Positions 4,153 to 57,397 of a stretch of DNA of 64,000 nucleotides are shown in pieces. The notes beneath the pieces are model-generated. The model was not told the DNA's origin, did not search any database, and worked only from the letters and a program-made list of their open reading frames with translations. The DNA comes from Anaerolineae bacterium (lineage in GTDB: Bacteria; Chloroflexota; Anaerolineae; DRVO01), in the NCBI GenBank assembly GCA_040768685.1, contig JAXGMM010000001.1, positions 553,279-617,278 of the forward strand, in the 5' to 3' direction. The stretch's first letter is position 1, and every line of letters starts with the position of its first letter. A program made the position numbers and the translations under genes.

Positions 4153-4950
4153 CTAGCGTGCACCCACGGCCTGGAGGCAGGCCTGCATGTGCCCGCGCGA
4201 CTCGGCGGCGATGATGCAGCACTGCTCCACCGGGTACTCTTTGGCCCCAATTATCTCGAGATCCAGGGGGCCGGTGTAGCCGTGCTTGTGGAGAACGCGG
4301 ATGTAGCCGACGAGGTCGATGTCGCCGCGGCCGTTGGCCTGCATCTCGGGCTTGCCCGGGTTCTGCTGGCGGCCCTTACAGTCGCGAATGTGGACGTGCT
4401 TGACGCGCGAGATCACGGCAGCGATGGCCTCCACCGGGTTCTCGCCGGCGCGGTGGATGTGCGAGGGGTCCATGTCGATGCCGAAGGCGGGCGAGTCGAT
4501 GTGCTCCATGAGGCGCAGAGTGCTAGGGGTGTTGTCGATGGCCGCCCCCACGTGGGCTTTCACACAGAGGGTGACACCGTACCTCTCAGCCATCCGCGAG
4601 AGCGAGGCCAGCGAATCGGCGCGCTCCTTGAAGCTCTCTTCGTCGCCCGTCTTGCCGCCGGGCCCGCAGTTGATGATGGGGATGCCGATCGCCACCGCTG
4701 CCTGGAACGCCGTTTCCATACGGACCGGGTCCTGAGAGGGCTGTTCCATGGCCAACAGCTCGAGCCCGTAGTCGCGCGAGAGGCGCTTGATCTCGGGAGC
4801 CAGTTCCTGCCAGCGGTCGAGCACCAGGTGCTCGCTCATTCCGTCGATGGCGGAGAGCTCGATGCCGTCATAGCCGGACATGGCGATGTACTTGAAGGCG
4901 GTCTCCATGTCGTGGCCGCCGAAGAGAACCGAATTGGCTCCTAGCTTCAT
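4153..4950 (-). CDS. sugar phosphate isomerase/epimerase (xylose isomerase-like TIM barrel)
   Basis: MKLGANSVLFGG...GYDGIELS N-terminus typical of AP_endonuc_2/xylose-isomerase-like TIM barrels; conserved His/Glu metal ligands. Confidence 0.8.
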   Translation of the reverse strand: MKLGANSVLFGGHDMETAFKYIAMSGYDGIELSAIDGMSEHLVLDRWQELAPEIKRLSRDYGLELLAMEQPSQDPVRMETAFQAAVAIGIPIINCGPGGKTGDEESFKERADSLASLSRMAERYGVTLCVKAHVGAAIDNTPSTLRLMEHIDSPAFGIDMDPSHIHRAGENPVEAIAAVISRVKHVHIRDCKGRQQNPGKPEMQANGRGDIDLVGYIRVLHKHGYTGPLDLEIIGAKEYPVEQCCIIAAESRGHMQACLQAVGAR

Positions 4951-4996
4951 GTTTTGCTCCTCATATGGTCGGTGTGGACCGTCCGGTCAATGACGG

Positions 4997-5404
4997 TCAC
5001 TCCGGCCTCAGCACCCGGACGGCGCCGGAGGCGCGGGCGAGCAGTTCGTCGTCCCAGGTGACGAGAGGCACATCGAGCTCCTTCGCTACGGCGACGTAGC
5101 AGGCATCCGCGCCACGGAGGCGCAAGTCGCCTGCCAACCTGGCGGCGAGGAGGCCCAACCGCTCATCAAGCCTGATCAGCTCGAGTTCGGGCAGTTCCAG
5201 CATCTCGGAAACGAGCATCTGCGCCAGCCATTGAGCGCATGAACGGCGTGAGACCGCGCCGGCTACCTCAGCGAGCAGAAGGCTGGGCCCATGGAGCGTC
5301 TGGTCGTGATCGGCGAACTGAGATCGCAGCCATCGCCGGCTGACCTCGTGATGCGCGTCGTCGGTCACGAAGTAGCCGACCCAGACGCTGGCGTCAACGA
5401 CCAT
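4997..5404 (-). CDS. vapC: PIN-domain toxin VapC
   Basis: MVVDASVWVGYF...D...E...D acidic PIN residues, 135 aa, 1-nt overlap with upstream antitoxin. Confidence 0.8.
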   Translation of the reverse strand: MVVDASVWVGYFVTDDAHHEVSRRWLRSQFADHDQTLHGPSLLLAEVAGAVSRRSCAQWLAQMLVSEMLELPELELIRLDERLGLLAARLAGDLRLRGADACYVAVAKELDVPLVTWDDELLARASGAVRVLRPE

Positions 5405-5667
5405 CAGAGCTCGCGCCGCTGCTCGCGGACGGCTTCAACAGCAGAAACTCCCTTAGGCCACACTGCGGAGACCTGCTTCGCCAGTTCGTCGAGTCGATCC
5501 CAAGCCTTCTGCGAGCGATCCCTCATTGCCTCCGGGGATTCCGGCGCCACGATCCGCGCTACTACCTCGCCTCTGTAGGTGATGTCGATCCCTTGGCCGT
5601 CCTCACGCACGCGGCGGATGATCTCGCTGGTGCGCTGCTTTAGTTCGCGTATCCCTACCGATTCCAT
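5404..5667 (-). CDS. Phd/YefM-type antitoxin (VapB partner)
   Basis: MESVGIRELKQRTSEIIRRV...ITYRGEVVARIV typical Phd/YefM N-terminus; start at internal ATG 5667 with GGAGG SD. Confidence 0.7.
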   Translation of the reverse strand: MESVGIRELKQRTSEIIRRVREDGQGIDITYRGEVVARIVAPESPEAMRDRSQKAWDRLDELAKQVSAVWPKGVSAVEAVREQRREL

Positions 5668-5744
5668 CGGTACGCCTCCGGGCCATTGTATCCACATATG
5701 TAGACACATTGTACCACGGGCCGGACTCGACCTGCTAGGCCGGT

Positions 5745-6737
<993 letters not shown>

Positions 6738-8736: not shown

Positions 8737-8835
8737 GATACTCCGCTGTGCGGAGTATCTGTACCCCTCTCCGACACGGAGAGGGGTTCCGGAGCCCCCT
8801 TCCCGGCGCGGGAAGGGGGTTGGGGGTTAGGTCAC
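8737..8835. repeat. GC-rich triple-hairpin repeat element (copy A)
   Basis: three consecutive perfect hairpins GATACTCCGC-tgtg-CGGAGTATC, CCCCTCTCC-gacac-GGAGAGGGG, CCCCCTTCCC-ggcgc-GGGAAGGGGG followed by TTGGGGGTTAGGTCA; same core recurs at 33115, 36538, 41471. Confidence 0.6.
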
Positions 8836-33114: not shown

Positions 33115-33224
33115 GGTCTCCAAGAGCGAGACCACTGCTCCCTTTCCCCAGGAAGGAAGGGGCCGGAGAGACCGATTCCGTTTCCCCCTTCCCGCGTAGG
33201 GAAGGGGGCTAGGGGGTTGGGTTC
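33115..33224. repeat. GC-rich hairpin repeat element (copy B)
   Basis: GGTCTC-caagagc-GAGACC, then CCCCCTTCCC-gcgta-GGGAAGGGGG CTAGGGGGTTGGGTTC; near-identical to 36538-36726. Confidence 0.6.
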
Positions 33225-36537: not shown

Positions 36538-36726
36538 TCTCAAAGAGCGAAACTACCGCTCCCCTTCCCCAACAAGGGAGGGGGTCCGGAAGCCGCGCCG
36601 GTGCCGCAGAGGCCAATTCCGGTTCCCCCTTCCCGCGCAGGGAAGAGTCGGGCTGGGCCTTCGTGCCACTGTACAGTCCCCGGTTCCCCCTTCCGCGTCG
36701 GGAAGGGGGCTAGGGGGTTAGGTCAG
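36538..36726. repeat. GC-rich hairpin repeat element (copy C, internally duplicated)
   Basis: GGTCTCAAAGAGCGAAACTACCGCTCCCCTTCCCC...; two units CCGGTTCCCCCTTCCCGCGCAGGGAAG and CCGGTTCCCCCTTCCGCGTCGGGAAGGGGGCTAGGGGGTTAGGTCA. Confidence 0.6.
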
Positions 36727-39995: not shown

Positions 39996-42290
39996 CTACT
40001 GAGCGGTGAGGGGGAGCTCGACCCGGGCAGCGCCGTCGGCGAGCGGCAGGGCCTGGCCGCCCTCCAGAGCGTACATGCCGATCCTGAGCGCGACCACCGG
40101 GGCGCCGGCGGGCAGCAGCAGTGCGTGCCGGTCCTCAACCTCCTCGCCGGGCGCCCAGGTATCGGTGGGGCGCGTCCAGCCGGCGGGCACGGCGTCGCTC
40201 TGGGCGATGACGGCGCCGCTCGAGTCCAGCGCATGCACGAAGACCTTGTAGGAACGCGAGGGCGTCGCCTTGGCGCGCCAGTGCAAGCGCACGAGAACGG
40301 TGTCGCCTTCGACGGCGAAGGCCGTCTCCCTGAGGGTGATGCCGTCCGCGAACTCGGCATGAACACCGGACGCGGTCATGGCCTCGGGCGCTAAGGCGTA
40401 GAGGGTCAGGCGACGCTCGCCGGCGCTCTCCTGAAGGGCGCGGTAGCCGATTCCTGCCAGCCAGTCCCCAGTGGCTGAAGAGAATCCCTGGTCGAGGACC
40501 CAGAAGCGGCTGTACTCGGCTGCCAGCCGGTCCGCTACATCGTGCGGATAATCCGGCAGGGAGCAGGTAGCCAATCGGCCCCGGTAGCGATCAGAGACCA
40601 GCGTGGCGTCGCCGGGCGTGGTGGTGATGATCACATCGCCGGCCCTCTCCCGCTGCGCAATGGTCGCCAAGAGGCCGTCGAGAGGGAGCGAGCCGGCCGC
40701 GTGGGAGCGGGCGAGCGTGAAGGCGAGAGAACCTACCACCGCGAGGGCGGCGACGGCGGTGAGGATGGTTCCGTGGCCGGCCAGGGTGGAGCGAACCGCC
40801 ATGACCGACAGGACGAGGCCGGCAAGCAGCGCCCCCAAGCTCAGAGCGTCGACGGTACCGGCGGACGCCCAGGCGAAGTCCAGTGTGCCGAGGCCTAGGT
40901 GCGACCACTGGCCGACCAGGGGAGAGAAGCGCGGCGCCCAGAAGGTGCGCGGGTCGAACAGGGGCAGGCCGGTGCTGAGCAAGCTGTCCTGGAAGGGAGC
41001 AAAGTGGACGAGCGAGCCGGGTAGGTTCAGGACGAAGCCGACGGCCGCCAGTGCCGGCAGGCCGCTTCGCCAATGGCCGCCGCGCTCCCAGATGGAAGCT
41101 AGGCCGAGGGCGAGGAACGGCATGGCGGGGGCGAGGAAGCGGGGCCCCCAGCAGTACCCCCCGTGCCACATGAACCACTTGCCGTAGATGAGAACGTGGG
41201 CGGCGGCGATGGCCAGTGCCCCCCAGGCGACGTCCCGGTGTCGCCGCGTCAGGTCGCGGAAGCCGAAGAGGGCGAGGGCGAGCACGGGAGCGTACAGGAA
41301 GAGGCCGCGGCCGGGGCTGATGAGCAGACCGCTCACACCCTCCACGAGGTTGGCGCTGAACGACTCCTGGGCCAGGTAGCCGCTGGTGAGGGGGTTGCCG
41401 AAGCGAAGGTAGTTGAACCAGCCGGAGAGGGCCACGAACACGCCGAGGCCAACGGAGAAGGCGAGGATGTGGGGCAGACCTCTCCCCCGATCTCTCTCCC
41501 ACGGGGAGAGGGGAGCCTCTCCACCCCCTTCCTTCCCAGGGAAGGGGGCCAGGGGGTGGGGCAGACCTCTCCCCCGACCCCTCTCCCACGGTGAAAGGGG
41601 GGCCTCTCCACCCCCTTCCTTCTCAGGGAAGGGGGCCAGGGGGTTAGGTCTACCTACCCAGATCGCCAGGGCAAAGACGGGCGTCAGCGCGAGAGAGGTG
41701 GTGCGGGTGAGAGCGGCGAAGCCCAGACCGGCGCCCACACCGAGGGCCGCCGCCAGCGATGGCCGCCGGCGGAAGGCCAGCCAGGCAGCGAACGCGGCCA
41801 GCAGGGCCAGGCCGGTCAGGGGATCGCTGAAGTCGTGCTTGCCGTAGGGCAGCAGGGGCGTGGCGAGGGAAAGCGCCAAGGCGGCGGCCAACGAGGCTCC
41901 GGTCGAGTAGCCGAGAAGCGCCAAGCAGCGGTAGAGCAGCCAGCCGGTGGCGGCGGCCACCAAGGGGCTTGCCAGCAGTGCCGCCTGCAGGAGGCCGATC
42001 GCCCCTGCCCGCAGGCCGAGCCAGGCCAGGGGCAGGGCGGCGACGGTCTGGCCGAGGCCCTTGCGCGAGTAGAGGTCGCCGTCGGGGCCGAAGGTGCCTT
42101 GCTGCAGGCCCATCCAGCGATAGGCGTTCATGTCCAGGTCGCCGCGGCGGGCGAGGCTCTCGGTGGTGGCCAGCATGGCTAGGCCATCGCTGGAGTGGGG
42201 TACGCCGCTGAAGTTCAGGAATTGGACGGCGAGCAGGAAGACGAACAGCGCCAGCCCCACCCGGCGCCGGGTGCAGCGGTCGGCGCTCAT
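39996..42290 (-). CDS. GT-C fold membrane glycosyltransferase (ArnT/PMT-like) with C-terminal beta-rich domain; carries in-frame repeat insertion
   Basis: N-terminal FLNFSGVPHSSDGLAMLATTESLARRGDLDMNAYRW loop like GT39/GT83; about 13 TM; C-terminal domain similar to those of 25899-28250 and 42287-44389; start ATG 42290 overlapping upstream stop (ATGA). Confidence 0.7.
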   Translation of the reverse strand: MSADRCTRRRVGLALFVFLLAVQFLNFSGVPHSSDGLAMLATTESLARRGDLDMNAYRWMGLQQGTFGPDGDLYSRKGLGQTVAALPLAWLGLRAGAIGLLQAALLASPLVAAATGWLLYRCLALLGYSTGASLAAALALSLATPLLPYGKHDFSDPLTGLALLAAFAAWLAFRRRPSLAAALGVGAGLGFAALTRTTSLALTPVFALAIWVGRPNPLAPFPEKEGGGEAPLSPWERGRGRGLPHPLAPFPGKEGGGEAPLSPWERDRGRGLPHILAFSVGLGVFVALSGWFNYLRFGNPLTSGYLAQESFSANLVEGVSGLLISPGRGLFLYAPVLALALFGFRDLTRRHRDVAWGALAIAAAHVLIYGKWFMWHGGYCWGPRFLAPAMPFLALGLASIWERGGHWRSGLPALAAVGFVLNLPGSLVHFAPFQDSLLSTGLPLFDPRTFWAPRFSPLVGQWSHLGLGTLDFAWASAGTVDALSLGALLAGLVLSVMAVRSTLAGHGTILTAVAALAVVGSLAFTLARSHAAGSLPLDGLLATIAQRERAGDVIITTTPGDATLVSDRYRGRLATCSLPDYPHDVADRLAAEYSRFWVLDQGFSSATGDWLAGIGYRALQESAGERRLTLYALAPEAMTASGVHAEFADGITLRETAFAVEGDTVLVRLHWRAKATPSRSYKVFVHALDSSGAVIAQSDAVPAGWTRPTDTWAPGEEVEDRHALLLPAGAPVVALRIGMYALEGGQALPLADGAARVELPLTAQ
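41471..41643. repeat. tandem duplicated hairpin repeat (2 x about 87 nt) inserted in-frame within CDS
   Basis: two units GGGGCAGACCTCTCCCCCGA..CTCTCCCACGG.GA.AGGGG..CCTCTCCACCCCCTTCCTT.CAGGGAAGGGGGCCAGGGGGT; encodes PLAPFPEKEGGGEAPLSPWERGRGRGLPH twice. Confidence 0.65.
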
Positions 42291-49743: not shown

Positions 49744-50151
49744 TCATGACCTTGCCGCTTCGGGCAGCGACTGGCAGACAAGATCGAACACAAAGCGGGC
49801 CGCCTCGAACGCTGCCACGAACTCCTCGGTTCCGGGATCCTCAACGTCGCCAGGGTACCGGAACATGACCGCGTACGGCGTAAGCAGTTCTGCCGCATCA
49901 AAGCAGGCGGCGAATGAACTGCCTAGCGCCACTGCTTGCTGGACCAATACGCTCAGATCGTGCGTCTTGCCAAACCTGATGTCATGGTGGGTCAGGTACG
50001 CTTTGAGGGACTTCTCCGCTGCCTGCTGACAGTGAAAGACCGCGACATCCAGGTACGGGTCGCGAGGAGATGCCAGCCTTTCGGCGGCGCCCAGATCACG
50101 CTGAGCCTTCAGCAACCATGCGCGTACTTGCTCCAGCTTGGCGTCGTCCAT
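49744..50151 (-). CDS. HEPN domain protein (HepT-like toxin)
   Basis: Rx4H motif IRFGKTHDL, AEKSLKAYL; start at internal ATG 50151; overlaps MNT gene by about 56 nt. Confidence 0.65.
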   Translation of the reverse strand: MDDAKLEQVRAWLLKAQRDLGAAERLASPRDPYLDVAVFHCQQAAEKSLKAYLTHHDIRFGKTHDLSVLVQQAVALGSSFAACFDAAELLTPYAVMFRYPGDVEDPGTEEFVAAFEAARFVFDLVCQSLPEAARS

Positions 50152-50440
50152 AGAGAGACCGACCCTCCTCACTGATCCTGGCCTCCAGAGAGGCATGGAC
50201 TCGTCTTGACAGCTCGTACTCCCTGCGGGTCCGAACGAGTACGTCCACGGCGGTGTCTAGGCCCCGCAGCGATCGATAGGCGCGGGTAGCCCGACGAGCC
50301 GGCTTTTCATCACTCTCCGAGACAATCACCATCACGTCGATGTCGCTGTCTTCACCGGGGACGCCCCAGGCCTGCGACCCAAACAGGAGGATCTCCTCGG
50401 GCTGGAACTCAGCCACCAGGCGACGGACAATCTCGCTCAT
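50096..50440 (-). CDS. nucleotidyltransferase (MntA-like antitoxin)
   Basis: LFGSQAWGVPGEDSDIDVMVIV GS-x9-DxD motif. Confidence 0.65.
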   Translation of the reverse strand: MSEIVRRLVAEFQPEEILLFGSQAWGVPGEDSDIDVMVIVSESDEKPARRATRAYRSLRGLDTAVDVLVRTRREYELSRRVHASLEARISEEGRSLYGRRQAGASTRMVAEGSA

Positions 50441-50675: not shown

Positions 50676-52061
50676 TTGAAGGTTACTACCCAGCAGACGG
50701 AAGATTGCGTCACTAGCCTCACCATCGAAGTCGACGACGAGACGATGGCCGCCGCCAAGCGGAAGGCGGCTCAGGAAGCCTCGGGTCGTTTCCAGATACC
50801 CGGGTTCCGCAAGGGCAAGGCCCCGTATGACGTGATCGTCCGTCTGATGGGTGACGATTACCTCACCCACGAGGCGCTCGAGAACGTGGCTCCCGAGTTG
50901 GTGGCGAATGCCATCGAGGAGCAGGAGATCAAGCCTTACAGCCGACCGGAGCTAACCGAACTGGAGGCGCATCCCCCGCGCATCGTCGTCGCCATCCCGA
51001 CCGAGCCGGTGGTTGAGCTGGGAGACTACCGCTCTTGCAAGGTGGAGCGTCAGCCGGTGGAAGTGACTGAGGAGGCGCTGGAGGAGTACCTGCAGGAGCT
51101 TCGCCGCCAGCGCGGCCACCTTGAGCCCATCGAGCGCCCGTTGCAGGTGGGCGACATCATCAGCGGCCGGATGCTGATCCAAGTCGAAGATGGCCCCACC
51201 GATGACGATGAGAAGGCACGATTCCCGGTGCCCACGGCTGAAGAGGAGGGCGTTCCCGGACTCTCCGAGCACTTGGTGGGGGCCACCGTAGGCGATGTTG
51301 TCGAGTTCGACACCGTCTTCCCGGTGGATCACCCGAACGGCGAGGTCGCGGGCAAGAACGCCCACGTAACCGTGGAGCTCAACGAGACGCATACCCTGGT
51401 GCTGCCGGATCTGAACGACGAGTTCGCGATCATGATGGGCGACTACGACGACCTCGCCGCCCTGCGGCAGGAGATGCGCCAGCGGCTTGAGGTTCAGGCC
51501 AAGGAGAGCGCGGACGAGAAGGTGCGCCGGGACGCCGTCGAGGCGCTGGTGGCTGGGGCGAGCATCAAGTATCCCAAGGCGGCGGTCGAAGACGAACTGG
51601 ACCGGCTGATGGCTAACCTGGAGCAGAGGCTGCGCCAGCAGCGCATCAGCCTGGAGGCTTACTTCCAGGCTCTGAAGACGACACGAGAAGAAGTGCGTGA
51701 ACGGCAGCGCTCCGTGGCCGAGCAGAACGTGCGTGAGGGCCAGGCCCTGCGGAAGCTGATTGAGGCGGAGAAGATCGAAGCCACCGACGAGGAACTGACG
51801 GCGCGCATCAACCGCATGGCGCAGGACATCGGCGCCGCTGCCGGTGGGGCGGCAGATTACCTGCATAGCGCGGAGTTCCGCGCCCGGGTAGCCGCCAGCC
51901 TGATGATGGAACGCGGCATGCGTCGTCTGGTCAGCATCGTCACCGGTGAGCCCGAGCCTCCGGAGGAGGAATTGCCTCTCGAGGACATGCCGGCGCCTGC
52001 TGTCGAGGTGATCGAGGCCGCCGAAGGGGAGGACGGGACTTCAACTCCGAAGGAAGAGTAA
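50676..52061 (+). CDS. tig: trigger factor
   Basis: [21 protein letters not shown]-terminus, FRKGKAP ribosome-binding motif; ORF track start 50589 is upstream of the promoter so TTG 50676 preferred. Confidence 0.85.
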
Positions 52062-52063
52062 GC

Positions 52064-52711
52064 ATGAATAGCCTCATTCCCATGGTTATTGAGAGCACCG
52101 GTCGGGGCGAGCGCGCCTACGACATCTACTCGCTGTTACTGCGCGAACGTATCATCTTCCTGGGCACACCGATCAACGACCAGGTCTCGAACCTGGTTGT
52201 GGCGCAACTGCTTTACCTGGACCGGGAAGACCCGGAAAGGGAGATCTCGATCTACATCAACTCGCCTGGTGGAGAGATCTACCCCGGCTTGGCGATGTAC
52301 GACACCATGCAGATCATCGAGGCCCCGGTGAGCACCATCGCCGTGGGCTGGACGGCGAGCCTGGGCACGCTCATTCTCGCCGCGGGCACAAAAGGCCGCC
52401 GGTATGCTCTCCCCAACGCCACGGTGCACATGCACCCGGCGGGAGGCGGCGCGCGGGGCTACGCTCCGGACGTGGAGATCGCGGCCAAAGAACTGCTGCG
52501 GATGCAGGGCCGCCTTCACCAGATTCTGGCGAGGCACACCAAACAGACGGTGGAGCAGATCGCGCTGGACTTCCAGCGGGATCGGTTCATGTCGGCGGAC
52601 GAGGCCGTAGAGTACGGCCTTGTCGACCAGGTCCTGAGCGTCAACGACAAGAAGCTCGAGTTGCTCAACGCCGCGGGCGGCACGCCCTCGGAGGGTAAGG
52701 CGGATGGATAG
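52064..52711 (+). CDS. clpP: ATP-dependent Clp protease proteolytic subunit
   Basis: [10 protein letters not shown], catalytic Ser/His/Asp context ([13 protein letters not shown]). Confidence 0.9.
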
Positions 52712-53981
52712 CCCTCGGAGCATGCAGTTCTGCTCATTCTGCAGCCGGCGCCAGGACCAGGTGGGTCGGCTGATAGCCGGGCCGGACGGCGTCTTCATCT
52801 GCGACGAGTGCGTGGATCTGTGCCGGGATATCCTGGAGGAGGAGCGCGGCGCCAAGGTGCAGCCGGCGCCCACGAGCATGCAGTTGCCCTCGCCCAAGGA
52901 GCTGTACCGGCGAATCAACGAGTATGTCGTGGGTCAGGACCAGGCCAAGAAGGTCCTGTCCGTAGCGGTGTACAATCACTACAAGCGCATCAGCGACGAC
53001 CGCCCAGACGACGGTGTGGAGTTGCAGAAGAGCAACGTCCTCCTCATCGGCCCCACCGGCTGCGGCAAGACGCTCTTGGCGCAGACGCTGGCGCGAATCC
53101 TGAACGTGCCGTTTTGTATCGCCGACGCCACATCGCTGACCGAGGCCGGCTATGTGGGTGAGGACGTGGAGAACATCCTCCTGCGTCTCATCCAAGTGGC
53201 GGACTTCGACATAGCACGGGCGGAGAAGGGCATCGTCTACATCGACGAGATCGACAAGATCGCGCGGAAGGCGGGCGACAACCCTTCGATTACGCGCGAC
53301 GTTTCCGGCGAGGGTGTGCAGCAGGGCCTCCTCAAGATCATTGAGGGGACCCTGGCCAACGTCCCGCCCCAGGGCGGCCGCAAGCACCCGCATCAGGAAT
53401 TCCTGCAGATCAACACCGGCAAGATACTTTTCATAGTCGGGGGCGCCTTTGATACCCTCGACGAGATCGTGGCGCGGCGCGTAGGCGCCAAGGGACGCGT
53501 AGGCTTCCCCAAGGGCGAAGCAATGCGTCATAACCGCACCGCCGAGTTGGGCGAGCTCCTGCGCCAGGTGGCGCCCGATGACCTGCTCGAGTTCGGGCTG
53601 ATCCCCGAGTTCGTCGGGCGTCTGCCCGTCGTGGTGAGCGTCGATCCGCTCGACCGTGACACCCTCATCGAGATCCTCACCCAGCCGAAGGACGCGGTGC
53701 TGAAGCAGTACCAACGCCTTTTCGCCATGGACAACGTGGAGTTGGTGTTCACCGAGGATGCCCTCAGCGCCATCGCCGACAAGGCGCTGGGACGGAAGAC
53801 AGGCGCCCGCGGCCTACGCACCATCGTGGAAGAGATACTGCTGGATGTGATGTACGAGATCCCCTCCCGCAAGGACGTCCGCAAGTGCATCGTCAGCGGC
53901 GATACGGTACAGCTGGGCAATCCACCGCTCCTACTGACCCAGTCGGAGCGTCCGGTGGATTGGCTGGAGGAGATAGCTTAG
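52704..53981 (+). CDS. clpX: ATP-dependent Clp protease ATP-binding subunit ClpX
   Basis: zinc finger CSFCSRRQ...CDECVDLC, Walker [17 protein letters not shown]. Confidence 0.9.
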
Positions 53982-54089
53982 GCTGGTCTCCCATTTGAGG
54001 CATGTAGCAGGTTCGTTCCGGGGCGCGGGGTCTCTCCCGCGCCCTTTGACTTGTGCCCGCCCTCGAGGCGGAGAGCGTAGGAGGGTACC

Positions 54090-55145
54090 GTGAACGCGAG
54101 AGAGCGCTTCCTGGCGGTGTTGGACGGGGTGCAGCCGGACCGGGTCCCTACCTTTGAGATTCTCATCCATCCAACGGTGGTGAAGGGGCTGTGCCCCGGA
54201 GGAAGCTACGCCGACTTCGTGGAAGCGATGGACATTGAGGGCGCCATCACGGGGACGCCATCGTCGCTGTACGCCAAGACGGTGGTGGACGCGGATAGGC
54301 ACATCGTGCGGGACGAGTGGGGCGTCACCCGCGGAGTGGGGACGGAGGTGGTGCCCATGCCCATGGGCGGCCCCATCGAGACCATAGACGACCTGCACGG
54401 CTACCGCGCCCCCGATCCCTGGTCCCCGGGGCGGTTGCGCCAGCTGGAGGAGTTGGCGGCCCGCTTTCGCGGCCAGCGTGCCCTGGGCGTCCATCTGCAC
54501 GACTCCTTCAGCTACCCGACCTATCTGATGGGCATGGACAAGCTGCTGATGGCGTTCCACCTGGACCCTGACCTGGTCCGGGCATTGGTCGACCTGTCTA
54601 TCGAGCACACACTGGGGATGATCGAGCATGCGTCCAAGTTGGGCGCCGACTTCGTGCTCTTCGGCGACGACTACGCCGCTACCTCCGGCCCGCTGATGAG
54701 CCCCAACACCTTTGAGGAGTTTCTGCTTCCCGGGCTACGCACGGTGGTGCGGGCGGCCAAGGAGCGGGGATTGCGGGTGATCAAGCACACCTGCGGCCGC
54801 ATCACGCCGCTGCTGGATATGATCGTGGACACGGGGATCAACGCCCTCCATCCGTTGGACGCGGCGGCGGGGATGGATATGGCGGCGGTGAAGCGAGAGT
54901 ACGGTGGACGCATCGCCGTATGCGGGGGCATCAACTGCGGCGAGGTGCTTAGCGACTGGACGCCCGAGCAGGTCCGGACCGAGGTGCGACGTCGCCTGGA
55001 GGAACTGATGCCGGGCGGCGGCTACATCCTGTGCTCGAGCAACTCCATCCACTCGCGCGTGCGCCCGGAGAACTACGGCGCCATGATCGAGGCGCTACAC
55101 GAGCACGGCGTCTATCCAGACCGATTGGCCCGCCCTTCCCAATAG
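54090..55145 (+). CDS. URO-D family protein (MtaA/CmuA-like)
   Basis: MNARERFLAVLDGVQPDRVPTFE N-terminus, IKHTCGRITPLLDMIVDTGINALHPLD, GGYILCSSNSIH C-terminus. Confidence 0.7.
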   Translation: MNARERFLAVLDGVQPDRVPTFEILIHPTVVKGLCPGGSYADFVEAMDIEGAITGTPSSLYAKTVVDADRHIVRDEWGVTRGVGTEVVPMPMGGPIETIDDLHGYRAPDPWSPGRLRQLEELAARFRGQRALGVHLHDSFSYPTYLMGMDKLLMAFHLDPDLVRALVDLSIEHTLGMIEHASKLGADFVLFGDDYAATSGPLMSPNTFEEFLLPGLRTVVRAAKERGLRVIKHTCGRITPLLDMIVDTGINALHPLDAAAGMDMAAVKREYGGRIAVCGGINCGEVLSDWTPEQVRTEVRRRLEELMPGGGYILCSSNSIHSRVRPENYGAMIEALHEHGVYPDRLARPSQ

Positions 55146-55166
55146 GGGCAAGGGACGGCGTCGGGC

Positions 55167-55303
55167 CGAGGTCCGCCGCTGGAGGCGCTGCGCGCCGGGG
55201 CGCGTGGTGCGGTAGGCTCTCTTGGCCGCGGTCCCCAAGGCGATGGGCGTTCGGGTTGGGGAGGCGGCGGATCGAGGTCCGCCGCTGGAGGCGCTGCGCG
55301 CCG
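55167..55303 (+). repeat. two identical 31-bp direct repeats in operon leader
   Basis: CGAGGTCCGCCGCTGGAGGCGCTGCGCGCCG at 55167-55197 and 55273-55303; contains palindrome GGCGCTGCGCGCC. Confidence 0.55.
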
Positions 55304-55327
55304 AATGAGTATGCAGGCTTCCAGCGG

Positions 55328-55356
55328 TTGACATGTCCGGTGATCCGATGCATAAC
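55328..55356 (+). promoter_or_regulatory. candidate promoter downstream of the direct repeats
   Basis: TTGACA-17nt-CATAAC; weak -10. Confidence 0.3.
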
Positions 55357-55421
55357 CGCGACATCGCGCTCCTGGGGGTTGGGCAGCGCCTGCGACCCCG
55401 GCGAGCAGCAGTGGAGGCACC

Positions 55422-56414
55422 ATGGCTGACAAGGTTCGCATAGGGTTCATCGGTTCCGGCGGCATCGCCATCGGGCATGCCATGCGGCTGCACGAGAGCG
55501 CCCTGGCGGAAGTTGTGGCGCTCGCCGATCCCAGCGAGGCTAGCTTGAACCGGATGAAGGAGTGGCGGCCGGAACTGGCGGGCGTGGCCACCTTCGTCGA
55601 CTATCGGGAGATGCTGGACAAGGCCAATCTGGATGCCGTCCAGATTCACTCGCCCCACTGCTATCATGCCCAGCAGATGATCGACTCACTGGACGCCGGC
55701 AAGCACGTCCTCTGCGAAAAGCCGATGACCTCGACGGTAGAGGACGCTCGGAGAGTCATCGCCAAGCGCGATGAGACGGGGAAGATCCTGGTGATCTCGT
55801 ATCAGCGGCACTACGAGGGCACCTACCGCCTTATCCGGCAGATGGCACAGGGCGGCGAACTGGGCAAACTCCAGATGGTGGCGCTGATTCTCAGCCAGGA
55901 GTGGCTGAACGCCACCCGAGGCAAGTGGCGCCAGAGCATGAAGCTATCATGCGGCGGTCAGCTCAACGACTCCGGCAGCCACTTGGTCGACATGATGCTG
56001 TGGACCACCGGCCTGCAGCCGGAGCGCGTCTTCGCCGAGATCAACTACTTCGATGCCGAGGTGGACATCGACAGCGCCATCTCGGCACGGTTCGCCGGCG
56101 GCGCGCTGGGCAACGTGACTATCATGGGCGGCTCGCCTACGCCTTTCTGGGAGTTTTTCGGCGTTTGGGGCTCCACGGGAGCGGTCATCTACGACCGCAT
56201 CAACGGCCTGCAGGTCCTTCGCGAAGGGAAGGAGACGGTGAGGCCGGAACTGCCTCCCTCGGCGGGAGACCCGGACACCAACTTCGTTCGCGCCATACTG
56301 GGGCTGGAAGAGCCGGGCGTGCCTGCCGAGTGTGGGTTGCGAGTCAGCGAGTTTACTGAAGCGGCCTGGCGCTCGCAGAAGAGCGGGCTTCCCGTGCGCG
56401 TGCGGGACATGTGA
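55422..56414 (+). CDS. Gfo/Idh/MocA family oxidoreductase
   Basis: MADKVRIGFIGSGGIAIGHAMRL Rossmann N-terminus, CEKPMT. Confidence 0.85.
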   Translation: MADKVRIGFIGSGGIAIGHAMRLHESALAEVVALADPSEASLNRMKEWRPELAGVATFVDYREMLDKANLDAVQIHSPHCYHAQQMIDSLDAGKHVLCEKPMTSTVEDARRVIAKRDETGKILVISYQRHYEGTYRLIRQMAQGGELGKLQMVALILSQEWLNATRGKWRQSMKLSCGGQLNDSGSHLVDMMLWTTGLQPERVFAEINYFDAEVDIDSAISARFAGGALGNVTIMGGSPTPFWEFFGVWGSTGAVIYDRINGLQVLREGKETVRPELPPSAGDPDTNFVRAILGLEEPGVPAECGLRVSEFTEAAWRSQKSGLPVRVRDM

Positions 56415-57397
56415 TGACCCGGCTGGCCATCCTCACCAGCGGGGGGGACTCCCCGGGGACCAACGCCGCCATCGAGGCGGTGGTCCGGCACGCCCGGCGG
56501 CAGGGCGCCGAGGTGCTCGGCGTCCGCCGGGGCTTCGTGGGCCTCGCTGCCGGCGACCTCTTCCCGCTGACCGTTGAGGATGTGGACGGCATCGCAGCCC
56601 GCGGCGGCACGGTTCTGGGCACGTCGCGGGACCGCGCCGTCGGGGAGGCCGACGGTCAAGAGCGTATGCGGGCGGTGGTGCGGAGCGAGTCCATCGACGG
56701 CATCATCGTCGTCGGCGGCGACGGAAGCATTCGCTACGGCGCCACCGCCCTGAGCGACATGGGGACGGCTTGCGTCGCCATCCCCTGCACCATCGATAAC
56801 GATGTACCGGAGACGGAGCGCACGCTTGGGTTCGACACGGCCTGCAACCGGGCCATTGGGCTGGCGGACGGTATCCGGGACACGGCCCAGGCTCTGCACG
56901 GCCGCATGTTCGTCCTGGAGACGCTGGGTGGGAGCACCGGGCACATCGCCGTGGCCGTGGCGGAGGCGGTGCATGCCGACTTAGTGCTCGTGCCCGAGGT
57001 CACCCTGGACCTGGACTACGGCGCGGCCCGCATGGCGGCGGCGGTCGCGCGCCAGGGGTATGCCCTGGCGGTGGCCTCCGAGGGCGCCGGCGACGTTCAT
57101 GCTATGGCTGCCTACCTAGGGGAGGCCGCCGGTCATCGGGTGCGTTTGACCACGCTCGGCCACGCGCAGCGAGGGGGGGCGCCAGGCTACCTGGATCGAT
57201 GGCTGGCGGAGCGATTCGCACTGTTGGCTGTGGAGCGTCTGTTGGCGGGTCGGGGAGGCTGCATGACGGCCTGCCACGGATTGCGAGTGGAGGCCGTACC
57301 GCTCGCCAAGGTCGCCGCCGGGCAACGGAAGCTGGATCTCATCACGTACCGGGACATCAACGGCCTGCCGCCGGAAGGTTCGACTGACGGGCACTAG
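56411..57397 (+). CDS. PFK-family (PfkA-like) sugar-phosphate kinase with non-canonical substrate motif
   Basis: GGDSPGTNAAI, GGDGS, PCTIDNDVPETERTLGFDTA, LGHAQRGGAPG conserved; canonical MGR replaced by LETLGGSTGH; GTGA/ATGA overlap with upstream gene. Confidence 0.8.
   Translation: MMTRLAILTSGGDSPGTNAAIEAVVRHARRQGAEVLGVRRGFVGLAAGDLFPLTVEDVDGIAARGGTVLGTSRDRAVGEADGQERMRAVVRSESIDGIIVVGGDGSIRYGATALSDMGTACVAIPCTIDNDVPETERTLGFDTACNRAIGLADGIRDTAQALHGRMFVLETLGGSTGHIAVAVAEAVHADLVLVPEVTLDLDYGAARMAAAVARQGYALAVASEGAGDVHAMAAYLGEAAGHRVRLTTLGHAQRGGAPGYLDRWLAERFALLAVERLLAGRGGCMTACHGLRVEAVPLAKVAAGQRKLDLITYRDINGLPPEGSTDGH

Follow-up and report, generated by a model that had tools for sequence, protein, structure and literature searches.

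The DNA analysed here is a 64-kb stretch of an Anaerolineae genome (hereafter the window); by its homologs, the organism falls among uncultured members of this class. Around the locus of interest its genes all lie on the plus strand: tig, clpP, clpX, a URO-D-family gene, a gap of 276 bp, and then genes for a Gfo/Idh/MocA oxidoreductase (Gfo), a phosphofructokinase (PFK), an NDH-2-like oxidoreductase and a family-5 solute-binding protein. The gap runs from the URO-D stop codon (TAG 55143-55145) to the Gfo start codon (ATG 55422) and contains both copies of the repeat examined in this work. The features of the locus are as follows, in window coordinates:

54090-55145, plus strand: URO-D-family gene (uroporphyrinogen decarboxylase/methyltransferase-like), 351 aa (Pfam PF01208, E=9.5e-33)
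55136-55151: left junction of the deletion of an aldo-keto reductase (AKR) gene, from BLAST and alignment with the related loci L004 and L003
55152-55197, plus strand: repeat copy 1 (46-nt unit), with the exact 31-mer at 55167-55197 and a mini-palindrome at 55184-55196 (nhmmer E=2e-10)
55162-55267: 106-bp segment (one repeat period) without a counterpart in the related contig L125, from alignment; the gap could be placed equally well elsewhere within the repeat
55198-55257: spacer of unique sequence, 60 nt between the 46-nt units (75 nt between the exact 31-mers)
55258-55303, plus strand: repeat copy 2 (46-nt unit), with the exact 31-mer at 55273-55303 and a mini-palindrome at 55290-55302 (nhmmer E=4.6e-11)
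55317-55327, minus strand: short inverted remnant of the unit, GCTTCCAGCGG, 13 nt past copy 2 and abutting the -35 element; its counterpart in the related locus L002 is AGGCCTCCAGCGG
55328-55356, plus strand: promoter of the Gfo/PFK operon, with -35 TTGACA (55328-55333), a 17-nt spacer, -10 CATAAC (55351-55356) and a TG before the -10
55366-55406, plus strand: conserved 5'-UTR stem GCGCTCCTGGGG / CCCCGGCGAGC (55366-55377 / 55396-55406), from alignments and RNAalifold
55422-56414, plus strand: Gfo (Pfam PF01408/PF22725/PF02894)
56411-57397, plus strand: PFK (Pfam PF00365), whose start overlaps the Gfo stop

A sequence-only reading of this DNA had reported two identical 31-bp direct repeats 106 bp apart, each containing the palindrome GGCGC-tgc-GCGCC, in the leader of the Gfo/PFK operon and just upstream of a TTGACA element. 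The repeats are indeed present: the exact 31-mer CGAGGTCCGCCGCTGGAGGCGCTGCGCGCCG lies at both positions on the plus strand, 106 bp start to start, and has only these two matches in the window even when up to three mismatches are allowed, against 0.00 expected from 100 dinucleotide-preserving shuffles. Similarity runs 15 nt further 5', which gives units of 46 nt with 89% identity that begin 7 nt past the URO-D stop codon. The palindrome is found in each copy as claimed, yet this 13-mer alone is unremarkable in a window of 66% G+C (2 found against 1.48 expected at up to one mismatch). The TTGACA hexamer is likewise where it was said to be, 24 nt past the end of copy 2. The assignment of the repeats to the leader, however, has to be given up. 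Both copies are upstream of the -35, in the URO-D/Gfo gap; barring read-through from URO-D, they are thus no part of the leader that is transcribed with the Gfo/PFK operon.

The promoter itself is well preserved. An alignment of upstream regions recovers TTGACA-N16/17-(TG)CATAA[C/A] in eight lineages (the window, L125, L002, L003, L004/L124/L126-129, L005, L130 and L131), that is, in every relative found and down to 66% Gfo protein identity. It is located at 5913-5941 in L005, at about 4927-4956 in L130 and at about 4903-4932 in L131. The loci that carry it differ fully in their upstream neighbour, which may be URO-D, AKR, a transposase or NUDIX. The sequence 5' of the -35 is unrelated between lineages (L003 and L004-type loci), and L130, where the unit is entirely absent, has its URO-D stop codon 17 nt from the -35. 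As judged from these alignments, the promoter would need nothing upstream of its -35. A consensus scan for promoters and terminators called no promoter and 0 terminator sites; the real promoter was missed because the last base of its -10 is C.

Between the -10 and the ribosome binding site GGAGG (55413-55417), the stem GCGCUCCUGGG / CCCGGCGAGC is invariant in the window, L002, L003 and L004, with a variable loop (RNAalifold). Its pairs show no covariation among these four sequences. An Rfam scan of 54800-55800 returned noise only, with best matches of 10-14 bits against thresholds of 42-153 bits and E>6. This 5'-UTR stem, and not the repeats, appears to be the best candidate for a real leader element of the operon.

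The gap in which the repeats are found is the scar of a gene loss. In L002, L003, L004 and L126-129 an AKR gene is present on the minus strand directly upstream of Gfo and has its own conserved minus-strand promoter, TTGACC-N16-TAGAAT. URO-D is visible on the far side of AKR in L003, L004 and L126-129, whose contigs reach that far. AKR is absent from the whole 64-kb window (tblastn). A neighbour-joining tree of Gfo has the form ((window, L002), (L004, L003)), L005, L130, L131; it makes the window sister to L002 inside the AKR-bearing clade, so that the AKR-less state is a derived deletion, and the alternative would need two identical independent insertions. The AKR-less L130 had raised the possibility that this state is ancestral, which we rejected because the tree nests the window within the AKR-bearing clade; L130 itself falls outside that clade. 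Alignment of the URO-D 3' end with L004 and L003 indicates that the ancestral stop codon TGA (L004 4301-4303) is CGA in the window and in L125. The open reading frame in the window is 7 codons longer (…DRLARPSQ; 55123-55145) and reaches the deletion junction, where it ends at the TAG, and homology with L004 stops at about 55140, 12 nt short of copy 1.

Other rearrangements are seen around these genes in the relatives. In L005 (GCA_013178015.1, contig JABLXR010000017.1; 79% identity), a DDE transposase gene and two genes for PRC-domain proteins (4578-5774) lie between AKR and Gfo, an arrangement that marks the operon neighbourhood as prone to rearrangement. L005 and L130 also have a second URO-D paralog downstream of PFK on the opposite strand. 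Upstream of tig, the window carries a gene for a HEPN-domain protein (49744-50196, minus strand) and L126-type relatives carry a gene for a PIN-domain protein with a small upstream partner (L126 823-1439); the position seems to be taken by toxin-antitoxin-like cassettes that differ between the two.

We searched for the unit with an nhmmer profile built from four clear copies, covering the 64-kb window and about 80 kb from relatives. The profile detected the two direct copies in the window, one direct and one inverted copy in L002 (E=5e-10 and 1.5e-9) and a single copy in L125 (E=1e-8). It found nothing elsewhere in these sequences, the next-best matches having E>1 in the window and the first relatives and E=0.04 in L130. 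The unit is missing from L003, L004, L124 and L126-129, which keep the promoter and the leader, and also from L005, L130 and L131 despite their conserved promoter. It is therefore present in three of the eight lineages with the promoter, each time with a different copy number and orientation. The sequence-only reading was to fall if the motif proved to be a repeat dispersed over many non-regulatory positions; within the window and about 80 kb of relatives we found the unit at one locus only, and over that span it appears to be locus-specific.

Wider searches added little. A degenerate version of the 31-mer had 0 matches in JGI metagenome contigs, and a scan of JGI metagenomes for the promoter signature recovered only L124, which belongs to the L004 lineage. 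A 27-mer from the repeat had 0 matches in viral contigs, leaving a phage att origin unsupported. The 22-mer core has at least 117 single matches in GTDB genomes, in unrelated high-G+C taxa. In one frame this core reads P-L-E-A-L-R-A, and the lone Anaerolineae match among those listed (L017) is inside a LysM-type coding sequence; these are single chance matches and are uninformative on the dispersal of the unit. Searches with a C-terminal URO-D fragment and with the partial cluster member P0248 yielded no further assemblies of the window lineage.

Palindromes of another kind are dispersed in the same DNA. The motif CCCTTCC-N(2-16)-GGAAGGG has five copies in the window against 0 expected:

8797-8817: CCCTTCC-N(2-16)-GGAAGGG
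33186-33206: CCCTTCC-N(2-16)-GGAAGGG
36688-36707: CCCTTCC-N(2-16)-GGAAGGG
41526-41546: CCCTTCC-N(2-16)-GGAAGGG
41613-41633: CCCTTCC-N(2-16)-GGAAGGG

In relatives, palindromes of this kind fill the spacer between the convergent URO-D and AKR genes (L004 4440-4560, L002 1-60), and the family may be a REP-like element or a bidirectional terminator of these Anaerolineae. At 41449-41622 there are two tandem 87-nt units, 85% identical, each containing CCTCTCCCC...GGGGAGAGG and CCCTTCC...GGAAGGG. With a seed of 14 and a distance of up to 1 kb, no close direct repeat besides this tandem and the 31-mer pair turned up in the 64-kb window.

The copies in L002 help to interpret those in the window. L002 is the sister lineage (Gfo 93% identical in amino acids and 87.6% in nucleotides), and its direct copy (1273-1318) and inverted copy (about 1337-1390) lie about 20 nt apart and form a long imperfect hairpin. 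This pair is located between the back-to-back promoters of AKR and Gfo, so the DNA there is probably untranscribed. The direct copy has GGCGC-TCC-GCGCC, with the arms of the palindrome kept, and the inverted copy has GGCC-TTC-GGCC in that place. In the window, the right flank of copy 2 with its inverted remnant matches AGGCCTCCAGCGG of L002 (p~0.004 against shuffles), which identifies copy 2 and its right flank as the ortholog of the L002 direct copy and inverted arm. Global alignment also suggested a third degenerate direct copy beside the L002 promoter, and that the spacer of the window is a decayed inverted copy of the unit; neither was significant against shuffles.

The remnant GCTTCCAGCGG can pair with CCGCTGGAGGC (55282-55292) of copy 2 in an 11-bp stem of ten Watson-Crick pairs and one G-U pair. 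The fold of this hairpin has z=-2.7, with 3 of 200 shuffles as stable, and the L002 pair has z=-1.9/-3.2. The region of copy 1 folds no better than shuffles (z=+0.47). In L125 an A>G change at 55323 produces a U-G pair within the stem.

L125, a contig from the Søholt wastewater plant metagenome, represents a near-identical strain. Its identity with the window is 99.8% across 3,642 nt, three real substitutions being found at 51556-55160, and it shares with the window both the 351-aa URO-D and the AKR-less URO-D/Gfo junction. L125 has a single hybrid copy of the repeat, whose left flank is that of copy 1 and whose right flank is that of copy 2, and exactly 106 bp are missing. This is the structure expected as the product of slippage or recombination between two direct repeats. 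Short direct repeats are known to bound deletions and duplications that arise by slipped-strand mispairing or RecA-independent illegitimate recombination, as is established for deletions in E. coli lacI. The locus resembles such cases in that a perfect 31-bp direct repeat (31/31 at both ends) brackets the segment and L125 lacks one repeat together with the intervening sequence. It differs from them in that a single metagenome contig, of low quality, is the source of the one-copy allele, and the difference may be either a gain in the window lineage or a loss in L125. To trace where the spacer came from, we compared it with AKR and its flanks in L002, L003 and L004 and with the rest of the window; no Smith-Waterman score exceeded those of dinucleotide shuffles.

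L125 has to be read with some caution. Upstream of the repeat it diverges from the window by about 0.1%, downstream by about 4%: six substitutions fall within 75 nt from the repeat onward, and the last 405 nt are 96.0% identical. The contig is old and scaffolded from metagenome data, contains N runs and has a 5-nt deletion that frameshifts Gfo (L125 4913-5141, corresponding to window 55524-55528), which reflects a pseudogene or, more likely, an assembly or sequencing error. The N runs and the frameshift limit the weight of the evidence from this contig, and its single-copy state may be a recombinant, a strain-chimeric join or an assembler's collapse of the repeat and not a real allele.

The age of the copies can be judged from their differences. 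The two 31-mers of the window are identical at all 31 positions, against 4/31 differences from L002 and 2/31 from L125. The neighbouring promoter block is about 84% identical to L002, and the 31-mer diverges no slower. Because it diverges like neutral DNA between lineages, the identity of the two copies reflects recent copying; had they been independent since before the window/L002 split, zero differences would be expected with a chance of about 0.01-0.02. All five mismatches of the 46-mer fall within its first 15 nt (p=0.002), which marks a sharp boundary of the copied tract, and these 15 nt still match at 10 of 15 positions, above chance (p~0.005). The pattern would fit an older duplicated unit with a recently homogenised 31-nt core, or recent copying of 31 nt beside a pre-existing similar G-rich sequence. 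The sequence-only reading had taken what it called perfect conservation as a sign of either recent duplication or paired binding sites for a looping factor. The first of these is borne out by the divergence of the 31-mer from L002 and L125 and by the single copy in L125. The unit is not conserved across lineages, and its identity within the window stems from recent copying.

We thus favor, with a probability of about 0.6, the view that the pair derives from a quasi-palindromic unit confined to this locus, whose copies arose or were homogenised recently at the scar of the deletion and would bound a repeat-mediated 106-bp indel at the strain level. The starting point would be a lineage-specific, GC-rich quasi-palindromic unit of about 46-50 nt in fast-evolving DNA just 5' of a conserved promoter. 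Loss of AKR and its promoter in the window lineage, the step that the alignments document, brought the URO-D stop codon to within a few bases of this unit. One 31-nt core would have been copied recently from the other, either through a local duplication or, if the paralogous copies are older, through gene conversion over a short tract. The resulting perfect direct repeats could serve as substrates for replication slippage or recombination, giving a one-copy product of the L125 type. Judging from their poor conservation, the repeats are most likely selectively neutral, and a lineage-specific function may exist. As a candidate side-effect we see only that URO-D transcripts would carry at their 3' end the stable hairpin that copy 2 forms with the inverted remnant.

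This hairpin leads to an unlikely alternative, in which the units act as a terminator without a U-tract, or as a 3'-end stabiliser of the URO-D transcript, and insulate the Gfo promoter from read-through after the loss of AKR. Such "I-shaped" intrinsic terminators and 3' stabilising hairpins occur in high-G+C bacteria and, like the units here, are stable GC-rich hairpins a few bases past a stop codon. The short distance to the URO-D stop codon and the retention of the copy 2 stem in L125 and L002 are consistent with this role. Both changes in the stem (the GCUUCC arm of the window and the A>G of L125 at 55323) result in G-U or U-G wobbles, which keep the pairing only in plus-strand RNA, although the argument rests on two substitutions that are both common transitions. 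The CCCTTCC...GGAAGGG palindromes in the URO-D/AKR spacer of L004-type relatives are lost here in the window. On the other hand, there is no U-tract and the terminator scan found 0 sites, so that a canonical intrinsic terminator is not seen, and only one of the two window copies takes part in a hairpin that beats shuffles. The same hairpin is found in L002 in DNA that is probably untranscribed, unlike in I-shaped terminators, and URO-D of L130 ends next to the -35 without any hairpin, so insulation is unneeded there. A role in termination or insulation is possible as a by-product and would be compatible with our preferred explanation of the origin of the unit.

The other proposal of the sequence-only reading, paired operators, fares less well and we consider it improbable. 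Here a dimeric or tetrameric transcription factor would bind the palindrome or the whole 31-mer, loop the 106 bp and regulate the Gfo/PFK promoter. Dual-operator looping is well known from lac (O1-O3 at 92 bp) and gal (OE-OI at about 113 bp), and the present locus resembles these systems in having two identical sites, each with a 5+5 palindrome, about 10 turns apart near a real promoter. The spacing of 106 bp corresponds to 10.1 helical turns and would place both sites on the same face of the helix. The centre of the copy 2 palindrome is about 67 nt 5' of the predicted start site, which is compatible with activation, and the palindrome arms are kept in the L002 direct copy, with a different palindrome in the same place in the inverted copy. 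In contrast to lac and gal, both sites are upstream of the -35 (nearest edge 24 nt) and neither overlap nor flank the promoter. They are absent from L003, L004, L126-129, L005, L130 and L131 despite the conserved promoter, and their number and orientation vary by lineage, from two direct copies in the window to one in L125 and one direct plus one inverted in L002. Where the sites are present, they diverge at the neutral rate. No further site, and so no sign of a regulon, is seen within the window, and we detected no HTH or other regulator domain in the open reading frames scanned from 42 to 64 kb. Only the helical phasing really fits this proposal.

A very improbable variant makes the unit a functional, lineage-restricted element. 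It could be a self-propagating, low-copy REPIN-like hairpin element that undergoes local duplication and inversion in uncultured Anaerolineae, or a pair of in-phase sites, newly evolved in this strain alone, that loops the DNA upstream of the Gfo/PFK promoter. Were this the case, Anaerolineae would have their first mobile palindromic element on record or a looping operator of recent origin; none of our findings points there.

No more credible is the insertion or duplication here of a small, self-propagating palindromic element of the REP/REPIN or MITE type. REP, BIME and REPIN are extragenic palindromic repeats, and the unit is like them in being extragenic, GC-rich and an imperfect palindrome with nested quasi-palindromes (GCGGCGGAT-cgag-GTCCGCCGC and GGCGC-tgc-GCGCC). 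The hairpins of copy 2 and of the L002 pair are of the kind that defines such repeats, the inverted copies of L002, about 20 nt apart, have a REPIN-like architecture, and copy number and orientation differ between close lineages. The unit is unlike these families in that all its copies are at one locus within the window and about 80 kb of relatives, where many dispersed copies would be expected. Within the 64 kb of the window the genuinely dispersed CCCTTCC...GGAAGGG was found five times, which shows that a dispersed family would not have escaped notice. The absence of matches in JGI (degenerate 31-mer) and viral (27-mer) contigs, with chance matches only among the listed GTDB hits to the 22-mer, points the same way. 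There is neither a short target-site duplication nor terminal inverted repeats around a defined insert, and we saw no RAYT (IS200/IS605-like) transposase among the open reading frames scanned.

There is an even slimmer chance that the pair is an assembly artefact of the source, in which the assembler would have stuttered over 106 bp or joined strains in a chimeric loop at a 31-mer node. The exact repeat size of 31 is a common de Bruijn k-mer size, L125, the only other assembly of the lineage that spans the region, has one copy, and the break at 55410 in a Logan contig of this Gfo gene suggests a complex graph nearby. However, the source contig of 2.09 Mb implies a long-read or finished assembly, in which single reads span the 137-bp structure. 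The two copies have different and individually sensible flanks, the spacer is unique and a copy of neither flank, and the signs of poor quality (N runs, frameshift) are in L125 and not in the window.

Finally, a CRISPR array would show three or more repeats of 23-50 nt at regular intervals, separated by unique spacers similar in length (about 26-72 nt), and usually cas genes. A mini-array was rejected on the two repeats, the spacer of 75 nt (60 nt between units), the single repeat in the close strain and the lack of cas domains among the scanned open reading frames, while an integron attC site and iterons were rejected on architecture.

The repeat pair, which we take to have arisen by recent copying at the deletion scar, is thus a real but ordinary feature and matters little beyond its own locus. 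For annotation, the value lies in the conserved promoter TTGACA-N17-CATAAC and the 5'-UTR stem, which appear to be the real regulatory features of the Gfo/PFK operon. More generally, the locus offers a small, clean example of how misleading perfect identity within a genome can be: at this scar it reflects recent copying in GC-rich, unstable intergenic DNA, and not purifying selection on a regulatory site.
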